A DNA stretch of 46,989 bases from Peribolospora baueri (GCA_029717555.1 JAMDHS010000126.1:1-46989); one strand, 5' to 3'. Shown: positions 6,364 through 43,630, numbered from the stretch's first letter. Made by a program: numbers and translations. The notes: a model not told the origin generated them from the letters alone.

Positions 6364-9300
6364 TCAACCCCTGCCCGGCGTCGTCCTTCCGTCCCTCCCA
6401 TCCCTCCTGCTCTTCTCTCTCCTCTCCCACTCCCGGTCCGTCTTCTCCCTCTCCCTCCTCTCCCCACCCCCGCCCTCCCTATCCTTCTCCCTCGGCTTTC
6501 GAAAGCACAAAAACTCAAGCGCCGTCGCCTTTCGACTATTCAAAAGCGTTTCCCGAGCTCTCTCCGTCTCCCTCGTCAACTCGTCTCCCGGTGCGTTGCG
6601 GTCGTACTGCTTGCTGATCATCTCGTATACCGCTTTGAGCGTCCTTTCCGTCTCTGCCGAGCCTACGATGTATTGCGATAGTACCTGGTGAACAAACTCG
6701 CACCCCAGCGTCGCCTGAACTCGTCGTCGTCGTCGTCGTCGTTCCCTGTTCGTCAGCCCGATCCGCCCGCTTACTTACTCGTTCGCTCAACTCAAACTCA
6801 AACTCACCTGTAACATCCCACCGCTCCCAAACTTTTTGACTTTTCCAAAGCTCTCCAAAATCTCCCGCGCCAGGTCGCCGACGAGCGCGGTTAGCGTCCG
6901 GTGCACCAGCGGCGGTGCCACCGACCTCACTTGGGCGTGGATTTGGACGAGCGAGAGCAGCGCGTCGTAGATGAACGGTTGAATGCCTGCGATCATCGCG
7001 CGGCGCAACTTGGGGTCAGACCGCGTCACGCCGTCCGCCTTGGCCCATCCCTTCACTCACCTCTCGGCATCGGCAGTGTCACCCAGTCCACGCCGCTCTT
7101 CAACACGCCGTGCCGAATGATACCGGCAATGATCTCCGCCTTGCGCTTCACAAAGTCATCGAACAGGATCTTGTCCATTTCCGAAATCGTCTCCCTTCCC
7201 ACCTGTCCTCCGACCCAAACGGTTTTATTTGTCTTAGCATCTCGGCGCCCGCACGCCGTCGACCGTACCGGACCGGACGTCACTCACCGCCAGCTCCTCC
7301 GTCATGTCCACCTTGAACGCCGTATGGAACTGGTCCATGAGCTTTGGAATCAACTCCGTGCTCAGGTAGTCCAAGTTGCTCACGGTCAGCAGCAGACGCG
7401 TGTCCTGCTCCCTCCCACCGTCCCAGGGGCACCGTCAGCACAGAGTCCACACCTTACGCGTTCATCTCATCTTACTCACCGGGTCTCGCAGGTTGCGCCG
7501 CATCTTTCCTTCCGATACGTTTTCCTCCTCCCTCGACGACGCCAACGGGTTCGCCGAGGCATAATCGGAAAAGCCGAGGTGGACGAGACCGTCGAGAAAG
7601 GCATAGATCGAGTCGAGAAAGGCTTGTCGGATGAGGTTTGTGAAATCCGAGCTTATCGATGCCTACGTTCGTCGACAACAGACAACCAAGCCAGTTTGAT
7701 TTGAATGGATCGAAACAAAAACACGATGCGTCCGCCCAGTCCGCCCAACCAAAACTCACCGCAGACCCCGGCTTTAGAGCGTTATCCTCCTTCCCCCCCG
7801 CTATCCGATACGCCGACCGAAGACTGCTCGTCTGCACCATGTTAAAGTCACGCATGTAAAGCGTCGTCGCAGGTCGGTCCGGTTGCAAAGCCCACGATTC
7901 GAGCTTCCACAGGATTTTAGAGTCTACCGGGGGGCAACGTCCGTCCATCCGACGTGAGCGAGCGACCTACGCGCGTCGTATCGCCCAGGCACTGCGCCGG
8001 ACTCACCGTTATGCCAGCTCTGGCACAGAACCTCTTCAAACCTCCATCGGCAGTTCATCACAAGACCCCTCAAGCTGGCCGCCGTCTTCTTGCTGATCTC
8101 CAGCATGGCCAGGTCGTTGACGCATTCGGATAGCTCGGTCAAGACCAAGATGCCGTAGTGAGCGTTGGTGATCGAGTTGCTGTACGCTGGCACAAACGGC
8201 GGCAGGCCGGCGGGTGCCAGCGGTGACTTTGGCACGGCGGCAACGTCGGTAAGGGTGAAGAATTGGGAGAGCAGCGATACGAAGAGGTCCGAGATGTCCG
8301 ACGCCATCGCTCGAGATGGGTGGTTCTTGCTGTCCAGCGTCGGATCCTGTGAGAGCGGCGCGCCACACACCAACGATACGATCTCCTAAACTCGTCCTTT
8401 TTTTCCTTTTACAAGCCCGGTCCCCACTCACCTTCTTCAGCCTATTCTCCAGGTGCACCTTGGCCACCTTCCAATAGCTTGGCAACGTTTGCAGCACCGT
8501 CTCCGTGACCGACTTGACCAGTTGCAGGATGGCCTTCCAGTGCTGCGCTCCGAGCACGTCGTCTGGGACCAGCGAAGGCAAAAAAGTATGTCAGGCACGC
8601 ATGGCGACGCAGGGACCCGTCCGATCACGCCTACTCACCATACACAGACTCGTCGTGCACAGATAGCTCTCTCACGCACTTTTGCAAGTCGAGTGCTATT
8701 CGTCGATCGTCCACTCCCGCTTCCTCTGGAGCCGTCCGAACGGCTAGCGAGTGGTGGAACGAATCTACGGTGAGCGCATGCCGCCTTGAAGAGACGCGTG
8801 CAAAACAAACCCACCTTCCACTGCCGCAAAAGCGTCGTTGTAGGCTTTCCGGACGTCCTGCATGATGTGTTGGTGCTGGCTCTCGAAGAACAGCGACGCT
8901 GGGTCGTCTCGTGGATCGAGCTCCAACAGGATCCTGGAGAAAGCGGGGTGCCCGCACAGGCTTCGTCAAAACCGAACAGGGCCTTGACAGCCGAGTGAAT
9001 CCGAAACTCACTCGATTATCTTCTCCTGCTCCTCCCAACCACGGCCCTTCTCCTTCAGTTTCCCCAGACGCGTCGTCCTGAGGTCGCTCATGATCCTCTC
9101 CACGGCCGTCCAGACCTTGTCGAACACGCGCTGCTGCTGGGCAGCCTGCTTCGCGCTCGCCGTCGGGTTCGACGCGACCGCCGGGTTGGCGCCACCCAGC
9201 AGCTGACCCGGTCGCGATTCGCGGAGGTAAAGGCCCTTCTTGTAGTCTCGCATAGCCGCGTCGTACTTGCCCTGTAAACATCAACAGGAACGAACAGTTG

Positions 9301-10469
9301 GAGATTAGCGATGGCGTGACGAACGCTCTGACGACGGAACAACCACGCACCGCTTCGATGCTCTCCAAGAGCGAACCCGGAAGGTTGAAGAAAAAGCGAG
9401 ACCTCTCGAAGACGCCTAGCGTGCTACGAAGTCTCTGGGCCTTGAAGTTGTTCTCCAGCACCGGCACGAACACCTGGTCGGCTTTGATGGTCGCGACTGG
9501 GATGCCGCGGTGCAAAAGCGGTACGATATAGATGAACAAGACGCTCAACCGCGACTTGAAGAACGGAACAACTCACGTTTCAACGCCTCCCGGATTTCGC
9601 GCGTGCCTCGCTCGTTGCCCTCCTTGAGCGGGCCCTCCTTCATCTCCTCGTACACGCCATCCGTGGTGGCTTTGACGCCGACGAAACGGTCAAAGTTGTC
9701 CTCGACGAGGATCTTGAGCGCTTCTGAGCGCTGGTTGATCGAGTCCTTGATGTACGCAATCCCCGCCGCTAGGTCATTGAAGGTTGCATCTGGATGGATG
9801 ACGTGAAGGAAGACCTTGGGGTCGAAAGATTTGGACGAGAGCAAGATCTGGGTGCCTTGAGGTGCAAGGCGCGGGGGAACGAGCGTGGTGCAGCAGTGTC
9901 AGCTCCGGCGCACGCATGCCTTAGAGAGAAAGCGGCCTCACGAGTTTCAAGGGACATCTCCCTTGCCCTGCATAGAAGTGAGGAACGAGTGCTTAGCGAT
10001 AGAACCCGGCGCGCACTACCTGCAACTCGCCACTCACTCGGTCAAAGGTCCCCTCAAACCCAACGGGTCAGGCTCGTCCCTCACCCTGCCCTCCTTCGCA
10101 CCCCCTCCCGGTACACCGCTTCCAGCACCGTCGCCGTCTCCACCGCCACCAGAAGACGTCAGCACGCCGTCGGCGTCGTAATCCACATCTTTCCAAGTTG
10201 TGGGCTCCTGATCCGGCGTGGAGATAGGGGTGGCACTAGGTGAGCCAAGCAAAGCGACGGCGAGGCGTTGCTCATCGGGGCAAAGAGGAAGATGAGCTCA
10301 CCAGGTGGTCTGTCCGATATGTCCGTAGCACTGCGATGGGGCCGCGGAGATGGCGACGACGAAGGCCGCCAGGGTCAGGACGATTGGTGGGCGGTGAGCA
10401 GTGAGAAGAGGCGCCACAAGACTCACATGTAGCGTCATCCACATCCAAAATACCTTTCCTGGAGCCCAT
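6364..10469 (-). CDS. SEC5: Exocyst complex component Sec5 (multi-exon)
   Basis: Segments [125 protein letters not shown]; canonical introns keep the frame. Confidence 0.92.
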
Positions 10470-10611
10470 GGCTTGCTGCGCGCAGACAGAATGGATGGAT
10501 AGCGCAGAACGACAACGAACGGACGAACGGACTCAAATCACGACGTTGACCGCCCGACTCGATCGCGGCGCCGAGGTCGGGGTGGGGGGCTGCGACAAAA
10601 AGTACAAAAAC

Positions 10612-10701
10612 TGAACGCTCACGGGTTCGAACCGCGGACCTCGCCCGCTCCGGATTGTTCCTGTTAAGGATGCGTCATAGGACGGTGGCCTGGCCGCAAC
10701 G
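10612..10701 (-). pseudogene. Degenerate tRNA-Val(AAC) copy with intact B-box, anticodon loop and 14-nt intron position
   Basis: Gap-free alignment to the tRNA at 13093-13180 (offset 2481), 54/68 identical over the 3' part by manual count; TTAACA loop, GGTTCGAAC and downstream T5 runs are kept; D-arm and 5' acceptor strand are degraded. Confidence 0.8.
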
Positions 10702-10861
10702 GTGTCTGCGGGATGTGAATGAAGCGAGACGAGATGGAAAATGGATGGAGCGGAGAGGAGGGACGGACGAACAGACTCATCACGACCTTGCCCGCTCACC
10801 TCGATCGTGACGCCGAGATGGGGACGAGCGCCATGCCATCTGGGTTAACGACGACGACCTT

Positions 10862-10913
10862 CTCCGCTTTAATCGAGAGCAGAGGAGCGCCATCGTGTGC
10901 ACAGACCAGTTCA
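10862..10913 (+). repeat. Copy 1 of a ~55-bp dispersed repeat (CGCTT..ATCGA..GAGC..CGTGTGCAC.GACC.GTTC)
   Basis: ctccgctttaatcgagagcagaggagcgccatcgtgtgcacagaccagttca matches 12961-13015 and 13281-13338; 10742-10788 also matches 12922-12969. Confidence 0.75.
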
Positions 10914-11159
10914 TCGGCTTCCCTAGACACGAGACACTAGTTCACCCTGTTATCCCTCTCTCCCCTTGCTCAGGGTTGGTTTACAGCATTGCACTCTTCT
11001 CACAGTCTCCCTCTACGTTTTGGGGCATGTCCAATGATGCTCACTACTATAAAATGGGTCGCCCGCCGAACTTCGTCTGTTGGGATCCAAGATCTTCCTT
11101 AGCACGCGTCTGGGACGTACAGGTGAGCTCTCAACGAGTGCGCGACGGAATCGCACACG

Positions 11160-11402
11160 AACCTCCTCCTTCCGTCGCTCCTTTCAGTACAGTGACCTTG
11201 TCTTCTCTGCACACGCGCCTCCCCCTTCCGTCGCACCGGCACCTTCTCGTATAGTGACATCTCCTTTCGTCGTTCCTGCCGCTGCTCCTTCCGGTACAGC
11301 GACCTTGGTGCACACGCAACTCCTCTTTCGTCGTTCCTTTCGATACAGCCACATCTCTTTTCGCCGCTACTGACGTCGCTCCTTTCGGTACAGCGACATT
11401 GT
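11160..11402 (+). repeat. Degenerate ~50-bp-period minisatellite, core CGTCGCTCCTTTC(A/G)GTACAG(C/T)GAC(C/A)TTG, 5 copies
   Basis: Cores at about 11173, 11229, 11281, 11329 and 11374. Confidence 0.8.
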
Positions 11403-11669
11403 CTATTCAATCTCTACCCCGAAGCCGAACATCGTCTCATTCGCACTTGGCCAGAGGCGTTGTCTCATTCACACTCAACAAATGTCCTCGCCAAGGACGA
11501 AGAGCGGTCGAGCGAGAGAGAAAGTATAAAAAGGGCCCCGTTTCCCGCCCGCTCTCCATCCCCACTCCACAAGCCTTCTCCTCTGCCGTCTCCCCTCCCA
11601 ATAACTCTCGCTCTCTGCCGCCTCGCTTCATCAGACTACAATATGTTTTCACAGGCCGCCCTCGCGCAC

Positions 11670-11850
11670 CATCACTATCGCTTCAGGTAGGTCGCCTCAC
11701 GCCTATGCCGCACCCACGCATCACTACCGCTTCAGCTAGGCCGCCTGACGCCTATGCCGCGCGCGCCCATCACTACCGCTTCAACCCGGTCGCTCGTTCT
11801 CACACAAACGCAACCTGGGCCTCCCACTCACACCACTACCGCTTCAGCCT
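11670..11850 (+). repeat. 49-bp tandem repeat, core CATCACTACCGCTTCA, 4 copies
   Basis: Units start at 11670, 11719, 11768 and about 11831; the first two also share ggt/gccgcct(c/g)acgcctatgccgc. Confidence 0.85.
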
Positions 11851-12170
11851 GCTTGCCGCCGTCGCTCCCGATACTGCTCCCGCACACGTGCCCACGTCCT
11901 CGCCATGTTCGAGGCCCTCCTACCACCGATGCGTTGCCCTGAACATCTTCAAAGGTCTTTCCCACCCTGCGGTCTCATACCTTCTAATACCTCCGCCGCA
12001 CGACCTCGGTCGCAAATCCACCCAACGTCGGGAAATACAAACCATTCAGCGGTAACGGCAGCACCAGCGGGTGGCCTGGGGGTACACAAGCGACGGCGAA
12101 GCGACAATGGTCTGACCTCGTGTTTTCCCCAACGGATCGCAACGGGTACCAATTGGTGTCCCTCCCTCTG

Positions 12171-12399
12171 GAGGTCCCATTGGAGCTCAGCCCCCTTGTG
12201 GGGAATGGGCGCTCTTGGGTTCCGTCTGGAATGAGGACACTAGGGATGACGATCGTCGCTTCCTCCAAACCCTTCCCCCAAGTAGAAGTGCTCCAAGTAG
12301 ACGTAACATAAGACTCCCCCCATCTGGCATCGCTGCACCTTGAGGTCCCACTGGAGTCCAGCCCCACGCAGGGAGTGCTCGCGTTTGGGTTCCGCTCGG
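12171..12399 (+). repeat. Degenerate ~58-bp direct repeat, copies ~171 bp apart
   Basis: gaggtcccattggagctcagcccc...ttgggttccg (12171) versus gaggtcccactggagtccagcccc...ttgggttccg (12342). Confidence 0.7.
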
Positions 12400-12960
12400 C
12401 TCAAGGGGCGCTGAAGGTAATCCGGTACTCGACAGCGGGCACTGCTGCTTTCTGTACCATATCCTTCCCTGCCGCGTCTTTCTCATTAGAACTGACGCAT
12501 TAATGAGCGCTGCCACTTTTGCTGTCCTTCTATGTCTCGGGCATCTTTCCTCTCTTTGGGCAAGTTTCTGAACTTCCCTTCCTACGTTCTCCAGTTGTTC
12601 CGCCACGATCGCGCGCAGCCAGACATGTGAACGTACTTACGGTCAGAGCGGAGCAACCCCGAGCCCTGCCCGGCGCCAATGTCACCGCGGGCGCATGGGA
12701 CGTCCAGGGTCGACACCGGCAGGTTTGGAGGAGAGGTAGGACGACCCTGAACATGATCTTAGAGCCTTGGCTTGCCCTGCCAGCAACGGCGACGGTCAAA
12801 GCGTGTCATCGCTATCAAGTCCTCCTTCCCTCACTACTATCATTGGGTATTTGGACGGCGGGCACGATGTGCTGAGAGCGCTGTCAGGGGACGTGAACGG
12901 AGCGGGATGAAGTCATGCAACTGGATGGAGAGCGAAGAGGAGGACAGAGAGACGGACTCG

Positions 12961-13015
12961 TCATGACCTCCGCTTGAATCGAGGAAGAGCGCAAACGTGT
13001 GCACGGACCAGTTCA
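12961..13015 (+). repeat. Copy 2 of the ~55-bp dispersed repeat
   Basis: tcatgacctccgcttgaatcgaggaagagcgcaaacgtgtgcacggaccagttca. Confidence 0.75.
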
Positions 13016-13092
13016 CCTGCCTCCGTCGGGCCCCGCGGTTCCTTCGATCGCGTCGCAAAAAATCAACCCACCTCAGCGAGGAAGGAAAAAAT

Positions 13093-13180
13093 TGATCGCT
13101 CCCGGGTTCGAACCGAGGACCTTATCCGTTCAGAATTAATCGTGTTAAGGATACGCCATAACCAACTAGGCCAAGCAATC
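13093..13180 (-). tRNA. tRNA-Val(AAC) with 14-nt intron (13129-13142)
   Basis: Minus strand reads GATTGCT-TG-GCCTAGTTGGTTATGGC-G-TATCC-TTAACA[intron]C-GGATA-AGGTC-CTCGG-TTCGAAC-CCGGG-AGCGATC-A; acceptor, anticodon and T stems pair; followed by a T6 Pol III terminator. Confidence 0.95.
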
Positions 13181-13246
13181 ATATTACTTTTGCTATGAAA
13201 AAATGATCCATGGTATCCGTTCCAAACCGAAGGGTATTTTGTATGC

Positions 13247-13275
13247 CGTGGGTTCGAGCCGCACGTTGGGCACCA
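13247..13275 (+). pseudogene. Isolated tRNA 3' fragment (T-arm, acceptor strand, CCA), tRNA-Lys(CTT)-like
   Basis: CGTGGGTTCGAGCCGCACGTTGGGCACCA resembles the conserved eukaryotic tRNA-Lys(CTT) 3' end CGTGGGTTCGAGCCCCACGTTGGGC; no matching 5' half upstream. Confidence 0.6.
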
Positions 13276-13280
13276 TCACG

Positions 13281-13338
13281 TCACGACCCCGGCTTGGATC
13301 GAAAGCAAAAGAGCTCAGCCGTGTGCACGGACCCGTTC
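13281..13338 (+). repeat. Copy 3 of the ~55-bp dispersed repeat
   Basis: tcacgaccccggcttggatcgaaagcaaaagagctcagccgtgtgcacggacccgttc. Confidence 0.7.
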
Positions 13339-14305
13339 TATTCGCCTCCCTATACCCGAGAGAATCTCTTACTGAAACAAAACGATATGATCAATGTAAG
13401 GATCAGTTTTGATGTTTTGCAAGACATGAAACCGAAACGATTTAAAGCCCAGATGTGGATCTTTGCAAGATATCGGTACTACCATCAACCCAGTAGTCCC
13501 CTTGAAAACTGCACAATCTGATTGTGCATTTGGGGCTCATGTTTGGATCTCTGCGAGATGTCGATGGAACATCGACCCTGCAGCCGCCTTGAAAACACAC
13601 GGTCTGGACGGTAATTTAGGTGCCAGGTCGGACACTTGCGAGATATCGGGCACACGGATGGAGGGTGGAAACCGCAAGCCAAGATGCTGCGACTCGCACG
13701 GCGAATATGCCCCCTATTGGTCTCCCACAATGAGCTGCCTGTCTTTGGACATGCGCAAGTTCGGCCTGGTGGATAACAAGGACTGGTATGACGGTGACAA
13801 TACCGGTAAGAGGTCGTGTGTATGACGAACGCAAACAGGATCATGGTCCGCTGCCGGCCGGACTTCCGCTGCTGCGTCTGGACGCGGCCGCTTCGCCGTC
13901 GTCGTCCCAACGCGCGATGCTTGAATTGCGGGCAGATGGTCCACCATACCGATGCGCCCGTCTAGAGGTTCACCACCTGGACTGGACTGGATTCCATCCG
14001 AGCATGCAGACGGGATGGAAGAAGGATGGCCCAGCTCGACCAGCGTTTGGCGGAACGCCGTCGTCGTGGGAATTCCGGCCGGCGATGCGCGGCAAAGGGG
14101 GCCGCGGGCGTGCGCCTCGTGCAGGCGGCTAGGGAGCGAGGGAACGAGGGAACGAGACAGGCATGATCGAGCCACCGTCCTTTCTTCTTCTTGCTCGGCC
14201 CCTTCCTCTTTCGTATTCTCCTCTCCTCGTGCCTTCGCCCCTATATCCCTTCGCATTCATATCCCCCGGCCGTCTTCGTGCGGCTGCTGTTTCCACTCTT
14301 TGTTC

Positions 14306-17300
14306 ATGAGCGGCGATACGAGCGGCGGCCTCTCCAGAGGCGACATGGATACCGAGTGAGTGTCTGCCCACGCCATCGACGGCCTTCTCTTACGCAGCGA
14401 TGAAACCCTCTCGCTGACCTCCCCTTAGAAACGCATTTGCGCTTGCGAACGAGCCCGACCCGACCACCGGCTGGACGCCGCTGCATTACGCCGCGAGCAG
14501 GGGCCAGCTGGAGAGGGTGCGGTGGTTGGTCGAGGAATGTGGCGCCATGGTCGGATGCGAGGACCGAGAAGGAGAGGTGAGCGTGACTTTGTTCATTCCT
14601 GGTTTCGACCGCGAGCATGATCTGAGTTTCCCTCTCGCAACCCGGGCAGACCGCTCTGCACAAGGCCGCCCTGTACGGCCGGCTGCCCACTCTCTCCTAC
14701 CTACTCTCCGAGACCGCTGACGCGGATCCCAATGCCGCCGATAACGATGGTTGGACAGCCCTGCATAACGCCGCTAGTAAAGGCTACCTCGACATCATCC
14801 GGGTATTGATCGAGCAAGCGGGCGCAAACGTGAACATCAAGGGCGGAAGGGGTGGATACACGCCACTGAGTGAGTGCGCGGCCCGGCCCGCCGAGGGAAG
14901 CCATGGTCGGTGGCGGTGGCTCATGTGCGTTCCGGTGTGCTGTCGCAGTGAATGCCGCCTCCAAGGGGCACTTGCCCGTGGTCCGCTACCTGACCGCGAA
15001 ACAACATGCCGACCCGTTCGTGCACAACAACTTTGGCGAGACTGCATACGACGTCGCGGCGGCCACGTTCGAGGTGTACATTTGCCATGTGTTGGAAAAG
15101 TACGAGGCGGAGCGTTGGGCGGCGCTCAAGTTTTCCAGTCCGGCGCAGAGCCAGGATGGCCCTTCGCCCGTCAAGCTGGGACAAGGCGCCTACAACCCTC
15201 TCGTCTTGCATTCGACGGTGCCCGTGCTGGTATACGAGAACCAGCGACTCGATACAAGGCTCAAGACGCTCGCCTACCGCGGCGGAAAGCCGCGCTGGTC
15301 GGCGACGTCCGCTGGCCGAAGGTCGAGGACGGACCGTCGAGCGCCCTTCACCATCCCGCCCGGCAGTTTGAACTCCACCGGCAAGCACGTGCCCGTGTTC
15401 AGGAGCGATGTGCAGCTGCCTAAAAGGGACGACCCGTATCATCTGCCGCTTCCGTCCAGGGTGAACCCAAGTCTGGCTCGACGCGGCGGGCGGTCGCGTC
15501 CGGCTAGCCGCCTTCCGACTGTCAGTGAGGCACCGATAGATATCGACGGATCGGGCGCATCGTCCACTCCCACCCCTTCCTCCGTCCTCGCCACTACCCC
15601 TCGCGCTTCTTCTGCCTCTTCGTCCGCATCCGCGTCCGCCTCTGAAGCCTCCGTGGAGCGCTCTCATTTCTGGCTCTCCGATTGGACGCCTGACTTGACC
15701 CATCCCCGGGTGGACGTGGACGACGGGTGGCAATACGCTCGTTCGTTCGACGATCCAGAAGAGAGGTGGACCGCAGAGCAGCCCCCTCTCTTGCGACGCC
15801 TTCTCTCCGGAGGCGCGTCTGGCGTTGGTGGCGTCGTAGGTTCCGCCGCTGCAATGGGGAGGGACGACGAGGAAAGGCTGAGGTTGACCGGATGGGTGCG
15901 ACGTCGACGGTGGGTGCGTATCATGCGTCGCAGAGTAGACATCGAGCTCGGCGACCCGGTCCCCGGGGAAGATGCTTGGGCCGCAGCCCACGGCGAAGGG
16001 GTTGACTACCTCACTCGCGCCGAATTTCTCGCTGGTGGTGCTGCGGACGGACACTCGATGGGCGTCACAACGCCTTCGGCAGAGGGCACGTCGAACGGGG
16101 TGGACGAAAGCGTCGAGCTCAGGAGGAAGATCGCGAGGCTGGAATCTGCCGTGAGCGAGTTGAGGAGTGGATGCTTCAGTGAGTCCAATTCCAAATGCGG
16201 TTCACCTGCTCCTATGGAACATATCGCGTCTGCATTGAAGAGCACGGCTCGCTTCTCTGCTTGCAACACCCTCACTCGTAAACCATGTCCCATGTACTCG
16301 CTTTCAGCGGACGACAATGCGGAACGACGCTCTCGGGGAGAGGACCTCCTGAAGCGCTACACTCTCGAACTCGGCCTACTGCGAGAATTCGCGGGTGATG
16401 GCCTTGTGGAAACAGAGTATTCGGACGAGGATGACGATGACGATGACGAGGACGAGGAGTTCATCTATCCTGGTTCGTCGCGCGACGACGGCATGTCCAC
16501 CGTCACCGGCCGCACCGGCTATTCTCGTCGGACCGCTCTGGCACCGAGCCCTTTCCGCTCGGGCAGCTACTTCCCCTCAGCCCCGTCAGTCATCTCCTAC
16601 GGCGGAGAGTCTTCCTACACCATCCGTGCTGCTACCCCACGCTCTCAGGACCTTGCAGCTGCCCCGGGGTTCAGGGTGCCCACAAATGAAATGCCCAGCA
16701 AGGCCCCCGTGAGACGCGGCGACGTCCCTCAGCCGCATAACCTGCAGCCTCAGTGGGAAAGGGACGAGGATGCGAACGAGTGTCGAAGGTGCCAGAGGCG
16801 ATTCACTTTCTTCGTCCGCAAGGTGGGTTCGGTTGTGCTGCGCACCACAGGGATGACTTGCTTGCTGATGTCCATCTCCGCCAACGCAGCATCACTGTCG
16901 TCGCTGTGGCCTGGTCGTGTGCGCCCAATGCTCCACACATCGCGTGCCCTTGGACCCGACCGAGCTCGTGCTCGATCCAGCCGCACCTGAGACGTGGCCC
17001 TCGCCGTCCTACCCCAATCAGCCCTTGCTCCATCGCATTTGCGACCAATGCGATGCTGAACTTAAGATGCCCAACCGTCTTCGCAACGCCGCAGGCGAGG
17101 CTTCCTCTCGCGCCGGAGAGATCCTGCTTGGAGGGCGCAGTGGCAGGCGCAACGTGGACGAAAACGAGCGGGCGAGCGACATTAGCTCTAACGTGAGCGA
17201 GCTCACCGAGTGCCCAGTGTGCAACACCACGCTGGCCTCTCTGGGTAGCGCGCAGCAGCAGGAGGAGCACGTGAAGGATTGTCTTGACAACGGAGGCGGT

Positions 17301-38369: not shown

Positions 38370-41300
38370 ATGCGTACCCTTCGCGTATCGACTGGGGCAG
38401 TCGCACTTCCCGCGCTGCTAGCAAGTCTGCCTGGCCAGGCCTTCGTAAGAGGTGACGACTCCTCTCCCTTCAAGATCGCATCGTCTATAAGCGGATACAT
38501 ATTCCATGCTGCCCCTCCGCCCAATCGAGGTCCCGGCGTCTGTGCCATGAGGGGATCTTGCGGGAAAAAGGGCATTTTCGGCCAGCCTTTGCCATGTCCA
38601 TACGATGGAGCGGCCGTAAAGGTGGGTTCTCAGTAGGTTGTTATGGAACTGTCTCTGGCACAGTCTCACATTTTACCCTCGTCGTCTTTCTGCTAGCCGG
38701 ACAATGACGACTTCCGCTCCTCCCTGGTGGACACCTGCGGCGCAGACTTCGCCTCGGGACCTGTATGCTGCACGGCGGAGCAGGTGGAAACTTTATCAAC
38801 CAACCTCGCGCGCGCCGAACCTCTCATATCCTCTTGTCCAGCCTGTCATAATAACTTTCGGGATTTCTGGTGTTCTTTCACTTGCTCTCCAGACCAGTCT
38901 CAGTTTCTCGGCGTCGTTAAGACGCAAAAGACGGATGAAGGGAAGGCTGCGGTGAAGACGGTGGAATACCACGTCGGAAAGGAGTTCGCAGAAGGCTTTT
39001 ACGACTCATGCAAGGACGTCAAGTTTGGTGCTACCAACGGATACGCCATGGAGCTTCTCGGTGCTGGCGCGAAGAACTACTCGCAGTTTTTCGCCTTCTT
39101 GGGAAAGGAAGATCCCCTCGTCGGTTCGCCATTCCAGATCAACTTTCCTCCGCCCCCCGCCAACGGCCCTTCGATCTCTACTGTCGACGATTATTCTAAT
39201 GGCCGTCAGCTCGGCAAAAGTGACGATGCCACCGTCCTGGGTAGAGCGGCCTTCACTCCCTACAACCCTCCTCCTCGCAACTGCTCGTCGTCTGCTCTGG
39301 ACTCGCGCTGCGCCTGCGTCGATTGTCCCCAAGTATGCACCGTTCTTCCGGTTGTGGATCCACCCCATACCGGACACCAGTGTCAGGTGGGGGCAGTGAG
39401 CTGCCTTACCTTTTTCATGCTGCTCGTATACGCCCTTGGCCTTGTGAGCTTCGTTGTCGGTTACGGTACAACAGCGACGATCAAGCGCCGAAGAGGCAGG
39501 CAGATTATGAGCTGGGCAACTTCGAGTAGCGGTGGCTACGAGCGCGTACGACTCAGCGGCGACGAGCGAGGGAGCGCATCCACGCTTGGCAGCACTGCTT
39601 CGCACGGCCAGCTAATCGGTGCTACTTCTCTCGGCCACGGCTTCGATGGAGAAGACTCGGAATCGCCTGCCACATCTGACCGTCCTCGTCTAGGCCGCGG
39701 AGCTGCTCTTCTCGACCCCATCGAGTCTTTGCAGCCTCGACAATACAAGTTCAACGTCATCTTGCAACGCGTCTTCCACCAAGTCGGTCTCTTCTGTGCG
39801 TCCAAGCCTTGGCTCACCCTTGCTCTGGCCGCCTTGGTGATCGGCCTGCTCAACCTTGGATGGCTTCGTTTCGAGGTCGAGACCAATCCCGTGCGTCTCT
39901 GGGTTGCCAAGACCTCGGAGAGCAAGGCAAGGAAAGATTTCTTCGACGAGAAGTTTGGACCCTTCTACCGCAGTGAACAAATCTTCGTGACGGCAGCTCA
40001 TGAGGGTGGTGCGCGCAATATCCCCACCAAAGAGCACGGCGAGCCCGACTTGGATCAGCTCGAGCCAGCGCTTAGCTGGGATCGCCTGAACTGGTGGGCT
40101 GACGTAGAAGGGCGTATTCGCTCTCTCCGGTCTGAGCCACACGGATACACGTTGGAGGACGTATGCTTCAAACCTGGGGGCGACCTGGGTGGAGGCAGCT
40201 ACGACTGTGTCGTCGAGAGCATCATGGGCTACTTCGGGGATGACCTGTCCACCGTGGACAAGAACAGCTGGAAGAGCTACCTCGACGACTGCGCCGATTC
40301 GCCGAGCACCTGCCTTCCGTACTTCGGTCAGCCACTCAAGAAGCAGCTCGTCCTAGGCGGCTTGCCCGAGACCGTCCGTGAGCGCGATCCCGACAGCCTG
40401 CCCGGCGAAGGCTCGATCATAACCCGCCCTGGAAGGCCGAGCGACGCACGAGCATGGGTGGTGACGTTTGTCGTCTCGAACAGCCTCAACGTGACTGAGC
40501 GAGCGAAGGCCGAGGAGTGGGAACGCGCCCTCGAAGCTTTGCTTAAGGAGGTTGCCTCGGAGGAGGGTCTGGGCTCCGAACGGAAGGAGCAAGGCGTAGA
40601 CATCGCATTCTCTACAGAAAGCAGCCTCAAGGAGGAGATCAACGAGAGCACCAACACGGACGTCCGCATTGTCGTTCTCTCCTACGTCGTCATGTTTTTC
40701 TACGCTGCGCTGACCCTTGGTGGTACGAGCGCGAGTGCACAAGCTGGAGGTAGTGCGCGCCCAGCCGTCACTGCGGCTTCCCGCTCTCAGGGCCTGTTTC
40801 ACAGGCTCTTCTCCGCTCTTTCCTTCCGACGTCAGCAAGAAGGAGAGATCGCTCTCGGTCGGCACGCTTCCCGCCGTCGTCGTCTAGGCTGGATCGCGCG
40901 CCGGCTTTTTGTGGACAGCAAGTTCACACTCGGCCTATTCGGGATCTGCATCGTGCTGCTGTCCGTATCTTCCTCTGTCGGCCTCTTCAGCCTTCTAGGC
41001 GTGCGCGTGACACTCATCATCGCCGAAGTGATCCCGTTCCTCGTCCTCGCCATCGGTGTCGACAATATTTTCATCCTCTCCAACGAGCTCGATCGCCAAA
41101 ATGCCCTCGCCAGCACCAGCAACCCTTACGGTGGGATAACAGGACGAGGGGGGCATAGCCCGTTCGGGGTTGCCAGAGGGAGTGATGGTGGCCTTGGAAT
41201 GGGACATGAGTACGACGCAAACCTGGTGGACGATTTTGGTAGCGACGATGACGACCTCTCCCTTGGGCCAGCTTACCATCTCCCTCCAGAAGAACGAGTG

Positions 41301-43630
41301 GCGAGATCGCTAGCAAGGATGGGACCTAGCATTCTCCTTTCCGCCACAACCGAGGTCATCGCCTTCGCCATGGGAGCTCTTGTGCCCATGCCGGCGGTGC
41401 GCAACTTTGCCATCTACGCCGCCGGGAGCGTCGCCATCGATGCGCTGCTCCAGTGTACTGTCTTTGTCAGCGCCATGAGCGTCGACCTCAAGCGGGTCGA
41501 GGTGAGCTTAAGTCCTTCCTACCGTTCTGGTCAAGTGGACTTGGTTCCCTATCGCTAACGCGTGCCCTCCGTCATTCTTTCCGTGGCAGTCATATCGCGT
41601 GGACTGCCTGCCTTGCATCAAAGTGGCCCGCCCGGCCGGAGAGGCGGCTGCTGGTGTGGGATTGGGTGGCGAGAACGCCGTTGCACGCTTCATTCGTCGG
41701 TTCTACGCTCCGTTCCTGCTGAAACGGCCGGTCAAGGCGGTCGTCATAGCCGTCTTCTCTGGCTTGTTTGCCGCCAGCATCATCAGCATCCAGCATGTGC
41801 AGATGGGTCTCGGTGAGAAGCCTGTGGTCTGTCTCAGGTGGCAAAGACCGCTCATTCTAAACCATCACCTGACCTTTGCCCACCCGTTGCGTCTCAGATC
41901 AACGTCTCGCTCTTCCGGCTGAGTCGTATCTCGTAGACTATTTCAACGACGTCGACGCCTTTCTAGGCGTCGGCCCGCCGGTCTACTTCGTTACTCGCGA
42001 CATTGACACCTCAATGCGAGTGGGCCAGCAGAGCCTCTGTGGCCGATTCACGACGTGCGACGACCTGTCCGTGGCCAACGTGCTCGAAGCGGAGCGCAAG
42101 CGTCCCGAATCATCTTTCATCTCCGAGCCGGCGGCATCGTGGATCGACGACTTTTTGCAGTGGCTCAACCCGGTCCTGGAAACCTGCTGTCGGGTGAAGA
42201 AGAGCGATCCTTCGCAATTCTGCACGGAGAGTGACTCCGAGTATAACTGTCAACCTTGCTTCGCAGGGCACGAGCCGCCTTATAACATCACCATGGACGG
42301 CCTCCCGGAGGGAGCAGAGTTTCAAAGATACCTTGAGCAATGGCTCGCGTCTTCCACGAACGAAGATTGTCCTCTGGGAGGTAAGGCGGCCTACTCTGCC
42401 GCCATCGCCATCGACACATCTGGCAACCACAGCGTCCAGGCTTCGCACTTCCGGACGTACCATACGCCTCTCAAGTCCCAAGCGGATTTCATTGACGCGT
42501 TTGCCGCTGCGCACCGCATCGCCGAAGACATCAGCCAGCGCACGGGCGCCCAGGTTTTCCCTTACAGCCTCTTCTACGTCTTCTTCGATCAATACGCCCA
42601 CTTGCTCGCCATCACACGCGAGGTCATCGCGCTGACGCTCGTTGCTATCTTCCTCGTCACGTCTCTCTTGTTGGGGAGTTGGCGCACGGGAGCCGTCGTG
42701 ACCGTCACTTGCGCGATGACCGTCGTGGACGTTGCGGGAGTGATGGGGCTGTGGGAGATCAGCCTGAATGCGATCAGCTTGGTCAACTTGGTCATCTCTC
42801 TAGGTATCGCGGTCGAGTTCTGCTCCCACATCGCCAGGGCGTTCATGGGCGCTGGTGGTGGTTTGCCGTACCATCATCCTGACGGACAGAAAGAGAGGGA
42901 TGAAAGGGCTTGGAACGCTTTGGTGGACGTAGGCTCTTCGGTGAGTGGAACGGAGGGGAACTCGCAAGGGTCGGCCCTTTCCGTGCTTTCTTGATTGCTG
43001 ACGTCGTTGTGTCAAAACCCATTTCCGGTCAAACAGGTCTTCTCTGGAATCACGCTCACCAAGCTCATCGGCATCTCCGTGCTCGCTTTGACTCGATCCA
43101 AGTTGCTCGAAGTGAGTGAGGTCCAGCTGGACCGTGTATGTCGCGCCTGGGGGGGGGGGCGATACGAATCCGGTTGCTAACATAACGTCACGTCGGCAGA
43201 TTTACTACTTCCGCATGTGGCTGTCCCTCATTGTGAGTGCCAATCTCGTTCTGTGTGTGAATAGGACCACGTGCTGTGTCCTGTCGGCCATGTGCTTGAT
43301 AGTAAATAGGTACAACCTGAGTTCATTTCGTTTTTTTTTTCTTTTGCTTGCCTTGTTGCCCCGCCATCCACAGGTCCTCGGAGCTTTGCACGGACTCATC
43401 TTTCTACCCGTCGCGCTGAGCTATTTCGGCGGACAAGGCTACGCACTCGACGTGAGTTATGATCGCAGTGTCCTCGTTCTCTTCATTTATCAAACTTGGG
43501 GATACGCTTACCATTTTCATTCACGTCACGACCTTCTCGTTACTCTTTGCAACTATTCCATGTCATTGTTCAGGGAGAGGACGAAGACGAAGTACGCAGA
43601 GTACTTCGTGCTCACGACCAAGAGGAGTAA
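38370..43630 (+). CDS. NCR1: Niemann-Pick C1-like sterol transporter Ncr1
   Basis: Signal peptide; Cys-rich N-terminal domain (CAMRGSCG, CPAC.NNF..FWC.FTCSPDQS); ETNPVRLW, FGPFYR.EQ; sterol-sensing domain (TLIIAEVIPFLVLAIGVDNIF, PMPAVRNF); GPPVYFV; LNAISLVNL..GIAVEFCSHI; YYFRMW; HGLIFLPV; final exon 43574-43630. Confidence 0.95.

Follow-up and report, generated by a model that had tools for sequence, protein, structure and literature searches.

The stretch of Peribolospora baueri DNA analysed here (GCA_029717555.1 JAMDHS010000126.1:1-46989, 46,989 nucleotides (nt); hereafter the window) holds, between its Sec5 and ankyrin/FYVE protein genes, an intact transfer RNA (tRNA) gene for valine with the anticodon AAC, a full-length dead copy of that gene, the stump of a third copy and four copies of a flanking repeat, R. 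It is probable that these pieces are what is left of an old head-to-tail array in which a unit of R spacer and tRNA-Val(AAC) was duplicated locally, at the level of DNA, and then decayed and was later interrupted by other sequence. Our verdict is that the locus represents ordinary tRNA duplication and decay and is not a mobile island. An earlier note on this DNA had described, at 10612-13340, two colinear tRNA-Val copies on the same strand, one intact and one degenerate, 2,481 nt apart, and had proposed either the relic of a tRNA-targeting element or the tandem duplication of an R+tRNA unit that was later invaded. The pair is borne out, as ARAGORN and Rfam call one copy and BLASTN aligns the other to it at 79.7% identity. 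The locus is also real, but the repeated structure spans 10480-13361, and one copy of R (Ra) and the third tRNA remnant (12844-12879) had been overlooked. Of the two proposals it is the duplication that agrees with the structure, which comprises three colinear same-strand units, one of them cut at about tRNA position 30.

The tRNA-Val copies and their flanking repeats

Read on the minus strand, the order is Rd and the live tRNA (unit U1), Rc and the stump (U2), an insert of 1,909 nt, Rb and the pseudo-tRNA (U3), Ra (U4) and finally the start of Sec5. Contigs from four public DNA runs of one study were compared with the window (no RNA run is listed for the region), X1 and X2 representing organism A, and X3 and X4 organism B, a relative. 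Over the contig pieces compared, X1 and X2 are identical to the window, of which they may be the source, and so do not constitute independent evidence.

13093-13180, minus strand: intact tRNA-Val(AAC), U1 (ARAGORN, Rfam, cloverleaf-compatible fold with acceptor stem)
13144-13146, minus strand: anticodon of the live tRNA-Val (sequence)
about 13129-13142, minus strand: 14-nt intron of the live tRNA-Val (ARAGORN)
13104-13114, minus strand: canonical B box of the live tRNA-Val, GGTTCGAACCC (sequence)
13086-13091, minus strand: T6 terminator directly downstream of the live tRNA-Val (sequence)
13279-13361, minus strand: Rd, R2-type, some 100 nt upstream of the gene in U1 (BLASTN identity 75.7% with Rb and 76.7% with Rc)
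12880-13024, minus strand: Rc of U2, with R2 at 12968-13024, and R1 and spacer at 12880-12967 (alignment)
12844-12879, minus strand: third tRNA remnant, the U2 stump, which keeps the gene's initial ~30 nt with the 5' acceptor strand and the D arm (alignment)
10935-12843, no strand: non-homologous insert between U2 and U3, 1,909 nt (no family match; edges bridged by organism B contigs)
11412-12416, no strand: central part of the insert, short multi-copy modules (contig depth)
10701-10934, minus strand: Rb of U3, with spacer, R1 at 10724-10823 and R2 at 10862-10934 (alignment)
10612-10700, minus strand: pseudo-tRNA-Val, full length, U3 (similarity to the live gene; uncalled by ARAGORN and Rfam)
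10480-10581, minus strand: Ra, R1-type, U4, without a tRNA (alignment to Rb)

The gene in U1 is the sole tRNA called by ARAGORN in the window (tRNA-Val(aac), 13092-13181, minus strand, with a 14-nt intron when introns are allowed). The Rfam tRNA model matches it over 13093-13180 with 47.8 bits against a gathering score of 29 (E 3.1e-08). The 40 nt upstream of it are AT-rich, and the proportion of G and C (GC) around it drops to 0.48-0.50, compared with about 0.58 elsewhere. Two further contigs in each run match this tRNA; they differ from it at 13134, inside the intron, and at 13142, on the intron edge. The live gene is therefore a member of a small tRNA-Val(AAC) family.

The second tRNA-Val copy, in U3, is dead. 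It lies on the same strand as the live gene with a start-to-start spacing of 2,481 nt, and is 80% identical to it over 74 ungapped nt (repeat family D4; E 1.75e-12 for the BLASTN match). When the whole of 10612-10700 is aligned to the live gene, 66 of 92 columns match and 7 contain gaps. The matches are divided between the 5' exon (27/41), the intron (9/14) and the 3' exon (30/37), the last being the best-kept part. The B box GGTTCGAACCC is the same in the live and dead copies, and the anticodon loop, the intron region and a T5 run (10606-10610) are also retained. Substitutions and indels have wrecked the acceptor stem and the D-loop/A-box region, in which CCGTCC stands in place of the word AGTTGG of the live gene, and the lowest-energy fold is without an acceptor stem. 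ARAGORN does not call the copy at its default setting or at -ps, -ps80 and -ps70 (as Val at any of these thresholds), and it is absent from the Rfam matches at E<=10. Lowering the ARAGORN threshold to ps80 or ps70 yields further calls, such as a 'tRNA-Ser' whose intron would be 1,777 nt long; these were set aside as artefacts of the permissive setting.

Retention of the intron region and the T-run, together with homology that continues into the flanks, indicates that genomic DNA was copied, and argues against both a reverse-transcribed mature tRNA and an attachment-site (att) repeat of the tRNA 3' end. The pseudo-tRNA shares with tRNA-derived short interspersed elements and retro-copied tRNAs its resemblance to a tRNA and the loss of the tRNA fold; unlike them it keeps the intron region and T-run, has no CCA or A-rich tail, and is single copy at >=80% likeness. 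The same features bear on the suggestion that a tyrosine recombinase integrated DNA into the tRNA gene, as in a bacterial island or a Starship- or Crypton-like element, leaving the pseudo-tRNA as the duplicated attachment site. We regard this as extremely improbable. The layout fits it superficially, in that an intact tRNA is followed by cargo and then by a second same-strand tRNA-like sequence. A bacterial-type att duplicate, however, is a short, near-identical repeat of the tRNA 3' end, whereas what is duplicated in U3 is the entire gene, 5' half and intron included, with repeats flanking it on either side, and the identity is about 72-80%. A third tRNA remnant and a fourth copy of R, moreover, fit an array and not a single integration.

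The repeat R is made up of two parts, R1 and R2. There are three copies of R2 (in Rb at 10862-10934, in Rc at 12968-13024, and Rd at 13279-13361), with pairwise identities of 76-80% (BLASTN). A 19-nt core of R2, CGTGTGCACRGACCMGTTC, has three occurrences in the window, all of them in the R2 copies, against 0.08 expected, and the flanking repeats of the earlier note (its R1-R3, our Rb, Rc and Rd) are real. In every case R2 lies upstream of a tRNA-like piece, in the same order and on the same strand for all three, at a distance of about 100-160 nt. R1 is present in U2 (Rc, about 12920-12967), U3 (Rb, 10724-10823) and U4 (Ra, 10480-10581). The alignment of Ra with Rb scores 90 against a shuffle maximum of 37 (81% over 63 nt by BLASTN), and Ra ends 11 nt before the candidate Sec5 start codon at 10469-10467 on the minus strand.

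The third tRNA remnant ties U2 to U3. This stump of 36 nt is cut at 12843/12844, at about tRNA position 30, and the colinearity of the two units extends from R1 across the spacer and ~30 nt into the tRNA (an alignment score of 79, where shuffles reach at most 40). The spacer and R1 by themselves give a score of 68 that was reached by none of 500 shuffles, and the stump shares 14 of 20 in-register matches with the 5' end of the pseudo-tRNA (P=4e-5). Beyond 10670/12843 the similarity falls at once to 0-3 of 5, which marks an abrupt breakpoint. Both the stump and the pseudo-tRNA carry CCGTCC, and the stump cannot be aligned to the matching 5' part of the live tRNA. Since the derived word CCGTCC is common to U2 and U3, the source of both units was probably a copy that had died earlier, and this would imply at least two rounds of duplication. 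Homology between the Ra-to-pseudo-tRNA junction and the Rc-to-tRNA junction was not significant (163/500 shuffles).

Two other candidate relationships among these pieces were rejected. The first would make R2 a still older dead tRNA-Val. The live tRNA and Rb align with a score of 32 that 1 shuffle in 300 attains; this result, however, comes from a set of 10 tests, and the majority consensus of the three R2 copies does not align (score 14, 358/1000 shuffles). An inverted repeat, I1, with one arm in the Sec5 start region (10442-10458 / 13229-13245; 17 nt, 88%), is of a kind of which about one pair is expected by chance per 4 kb, by our estimate.

In the spacer of U1, on the tRNA strand and about 70 nt upstream of the live tRNA, there is also a B-box-like word, GGCTCGAACCC (13250-13260, minus strand), with one mismatch to the tRNA B box; the U1 spacer is the one without R1. 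This word may be what remains of a further dead tRNA copy, or may have arisen by chance. Local alignment of the tRNA or the pseudo-tRNA with the U1 spacer was not significant (scores reached by 23/300 and 21/300 shuffles, respectively). A word on the plus strand near 13236-13268 that resembles a tRNA 3' end and finishes in CCA was discarded as a candidate, being uncalled by Rfam at E<=10 and by ARAGORN.

The steps by which the array formed can be proposed as follows. An R+tRNA unit would have undergone local tandem or segmental duplication, the likely mechanism being unequal crossing-over or replication slippage. U1 alone would have stayed a working RNA polymerase III gene, with its A and B boxes, intron, T-run terminator and AT-rich upstream region. 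The other copies would have decayed neutrally, leaving a full-length pseudo-tRNA in U3, the first ~30 nt of the gene in U2 and part of the spacer repeat in U4, and in a later step an unrelated non-coding stretch of 1,909 nt would have cut U2 short. The pieces do share orientation and order, with homology that extends into intron, terminator and flanks, extra copies that are dead, and fixation in the relative. In this the locus resembles the known birth-and-death turnover of nuclear tRNA gene families through tandem duplication and pseudogenisation: its units lie head to tail on one strand, the copy takes in the flanks, the intron and the terminator, a single member survives while the rest decay, and a relative has the same arrangement. 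It differs in that one unit is broken within the gene by 1.9 kb of unrelated DNA, partly of dispersed repeats, and in that the live unit is without the R1 part of the spacer.

The 1,909-nt insert

Three internal repeat families are found in the insert: D1/D5/D9/D11 at 11150-11410, a 49-nt tandem of 2.3 copies at 11669-11783, and D7/D10 at 12149-12224 and 12320-12394. It also contains TATAAAA at 11048-11054 and 11525-11531 on the plus strand, 477 nt apart, the second within a multi-copy module. These are two of the only three occurrences in the window, for the whole of which 0.56 would be expected. All six frames of the insert are stop-rich, and there is no open frame after either TATAAAA. None of the 39 stop-to-stop frames of at least 45 amino acids (aa) in 10700-13000 matches Pfam better than E 0.065; the three weakest-level matches among the island frames are to unrelated families, none a recombinase. 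GC 3-periodicity has a mean of 0.09 in the island compared with 0.15-0.24 in known neighbouring exons. For the highest-copy module, a search of 5.8 billion proteins with the 138-aa minus-strand frame that overlies it gave no match at E<=0.001, and metagenome scans with a 24-letter consensus of the module gave none either. A sigma-70 and terminator scan, inapplicable to a eukaryote, returned nothing. What the earlier note had described inside the insert, namely three internal repeat families, TATAAAA at ~11048 and ~11525 and no credible open reading frame, is thus borne out.

The edges of the insert, 10935 and 12843, are marked by none of 19 direct and 4 inverted repeat families, nor by an A- or T-run. 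Comparison of its left with its right part, and of the right flank with the insert, gave no significant similarity (95/500 and 338/500 shuffles). No match to a reverse transcriptase, integrase, recombinase or transposase was found in 63 of the 68 window frames of at least 170 aa, the five left unscanned being antisense to recognised genes. Nor was a recombinase or DUF3435-type match seen in the island or in those same 63 long frames. For integration by a tyrosine recombinase it is a further difficulty that the supposed cargo is 1.9 kb without a gene and that the structure is fixed in organism B. Fungal tyrosine-recombinase elements, the Starships, are giant and have a DUF3435 captain, and one targets 5S rDNA, a polymerase III gene (bioRxiv 10.1101/2021.12.13.472469). 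Bacterial tRNA islands, Starships and Cryptons are like this locus in having a direct-orientation tRNA, intervening DNA and a second tRNA-like sequence; they are unlike it in that here there is no recombinase, there are no cargo genes, and a whole gene is repeated together with its flanks.

Depth and contig matches provide a different view of the insert. Contigs were matched at a threshold of >=80% likeness. Their summed depth, which is not an exact copy number, is flat over 9000-11411 and 12417-13019, at about 114 in X1 and about 99 in X3. Over 11412-12416 it rises to 526-1613 in X1 and 563-1347 in X3, so that this part is multi-copy in both organisms. It is covered by 7-8 other contigs at 11494 and by 11-12 at 12126, and some of the module matches are pieces of about 155 nt within contigs of 22-27 kb. 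Taken together, the depth peak and the extra contigs show that the middle ~1 kb is a mosaic of short dispersed modules. BLASTN found no other copy of this central part in the window. At >=80% likeness the assemblies contain nothing else that matches the pseudo-tRNA, R or the outer parts of the insert. The earlier note had taken a single-copy island as evidence against its element relic; this description is right for R and the flanks, which have no other match at that threshold, but not for the insert middle at 11412-12416, which is multi-copy. Most likely the central modules are decayed repeat or transposon debris of an uncharacterised family.

Such DNA beside a tRNA gene raises the question of whether the locus is the relic of a polymerase III-directed mobile element, with R or the insert modules as a solo long terminal repeat (LTR) or terminal fragment and the array formed through insertion and recombination. 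We think this quite unlikely. It would account for the position of R2, which lies upstream of each of the three tRNA-like pieces at a roughly similar distance (about 100-160 nt), and for the presence of the central 1 kb in multiple copies in both organisms. One multi-copy module, in addition, holds TATAAAA, and the U3 regions of LTRs (not our unit of that name) carry TATA boxes. On the other side, units U2 and U3 also have in common a homologous spacer between R and the tRNA, so that R and the tRNA were duplicated together as a unit. Neither R nor the pseudo-tRNA has raised depth elsewhere when contigs are matched at >=80% likeness. No reverse transcriptase, integrase or endonuclease remnant occurs in the island frames or in 63 of 68 long window frames, the insert edges are not marked by any of the direct (19) or inverted (4) repeat families, and the other copies of the modules are pieces of about 155 nt in long contigs.

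The distance of the modules, though not that of R2, also counts against it. Retroelements directed to tRNA genes are known from yeasts and dictyostelids (PMC5006619, PMC5911963). According to the first of these papers, they insert about 15 or 50 nt upstream, or 7-136 nt downstream, of tRNA genes, and windows of 7-136 nt are quoted there for TRE5, TRE3, DGLT-A and Skipper-2 (PMC5006619). Here the modules are separated from the live tRNA by ~680 nt and from the pseudo-tRNA by ~710 nt, well beyond that range (PMC5006619). Ty1, Ty3, TRE5/TRE3, DGLT-A and Skipper-2 are comparable in being repetitive DNA beside a tRNA gene in a compact genome, with a TATA box in one module in our case. Polymerase III-directed retrotransposons differ in that here there are no LTR or poly(A) termini, and the known elements do not duplicate the tRNA gene.

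A more specific form of this idea, that R and perhaps the modules are the last traces of an extinct element family which targeted the region upstream of tRNA-Val in a Ustilaginomycotina-like basidiomycete, with the array again formed by insertion and recombination, appears to us very unlikely. A non-exhaustive literature search found no report of a polymerase III- or tRNA-directed element in Ustilaginomycotina or basidiomycetes. The relic of a tRNA-targeting element, which the earlier note had put forward, is not supported: no recombinase, reverse transcriptase or integrase remnant is found in the frames scanned, the copy is full length with its flanks, and the intron is kept.

Age of the array and the weight of the evidence

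Comparison with organism B proved informative for the age of the array. One of its contigs covers 9000-11458 (2,459 nt) with 43 substitutions and 31 gap letters relative to the window, another covers 12320-13116 (797 nt) with 17 substitutions, and a third lies on 13276-15000. Together the organism B contigs bridge Ra, the pseudo-tRNA, Rb, both insert edges, the U2 stump and Rc at ~2% divergence. The presence of the same structure, insert included, in organism B indicates that the whole array predates the split between A and B. The copies in the array differ from each other by 20-24%, compared with about 2% between A and B, and on the assumption of neutral decay the array could be roughly ten times older than that split. 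Presence in relatives was a further point that the earlier note would have held against its element relic, and this is largely what is seen, organism B having the structure at ~2% divergence. The comparison with a relative that it had envisaged, in search of an empty site with one tRNA, gave the same structure in organism B and no empty site.

To the right of the array there are direct repeats at 13463-13650 and 13623-13823 (D12 and D19; spacing 87 and 173 nt). The depth bin 13623-13823 has about twice the flanking depth in organism A, and organism B has a 54-nt replacement at 13751-13806.

It may be asked whether some of the debris is in use, with small polymerase II units driven by TATAAAA in the insert and the B box of the pseudo-tRNA serving as a TFIIIC-binding boundary. 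This would be compatible with a history of duplication, and we consider it unlikely. Both TATAAAA of the insert are on the plus strand, within 480 nt, and enriched over expectation; the B box of the pseudo-tRNA, GGTTCGAACCC, is intact at about 140-230 nt upstream of the Sec5 start, and the 3' exon is the best-kept part of the copy (30/37). The motifs, however, are followed by no open frame, with no protein-family match and low coding periodicity, and we estimate that an identical run of 13 nt is not unusual in a 74-nt alignment of 80% identity. Changes between A and B fall in or near the pseudo-tRNA, at 10604 and 10658, and divergence there is no lower than in its surroundings. At this locus nothing beyond the single tRNA gene needs to be functional.

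Several observations weigh against duplication followed by decay as a full account of the locus. U1 is without R1, so the units are not uniformly colinear, and its 110-nt spacer has no significant similarity to the spacers of U2 and U3 (scores reached by 324/500 and 356/500 shuffles). The local copies of R, being 76-81% alike, are not matched even to each other at the 80% threshold, and R copies elsewhere that had diverged equally would thus be missed. The outer ~475 and ~425 nt of the insert are single copy, and hence it is not a simple end-to-end transposon insertion. The TATAAAA pair hints at promoters in the insert. Lastly, no relative with an empty site was found among the assemblies.

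Genomic setting and significance

The neighbours of the array are housekeeping genes, encoding an AGC kinase, Sec5, the ankyrin/FYVE protein, a CAAX protease, Bud13 and NPC1. The array occupies a divergent intergenic region of 3.8 kb, from Sec5 to the ankyrin/FYVE gene, which seems long beside the housekeeping genes packed along the rest of the window. Candidate start codons, as read from the sequence, would be at 10467-10469 on the minus strand for Sec5, with GTGAGT 43 nt after it, and at an ATG at 14307 on the plus strand for the ankyrin/FYVE gene, followed by a GTGAGT intron. Each of the two promoter regions has an 8-nt tandem repeat, AGGGAACG x3.2 at 14131-14156 for the ankyrin/FYVE gene and ACGAACGG x2.2 at 10515-10532, inside Ra, for Sec5. 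The ankyrin/FYVE protein gave 595 pattern matches in metagenome scans and no relative.

The host was taken to be a basidiomycete in the earlier note, and the NPC1-like sterol transporter at 38697-41558 on the plus strand agrees with this. The named homologues among the 120 listed all belong to the Basidiomycota, and the best named relatives among the matches listed are from the Ustilaginomycotina (Ceraceosorus, Microstroma, Violaceomyces) with 47-49% identity. The best match of all among those listed has 55% identity, and a protein atlas gives NPC1 as eukaryotic. The host appears to be without a close named relative in the protein collection searched.

For annotation, 10612-10700 and 12844-12879 are tRNA pseudogenes, no gene should be predicted in 10935-12843, and the modules at 11412-12416 represent an uncharacterised repeat family of this genome. 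The significance of the locus beyond annotation is small. Its layout, in which a tRNA, filler and a pseudo-tRNA follow one another, can mimic the footprint of an integration, and it provides, from a compact fungal genome, a small, clean example of tRNA gene family turnover in which copies arise by local duplication and then decay.

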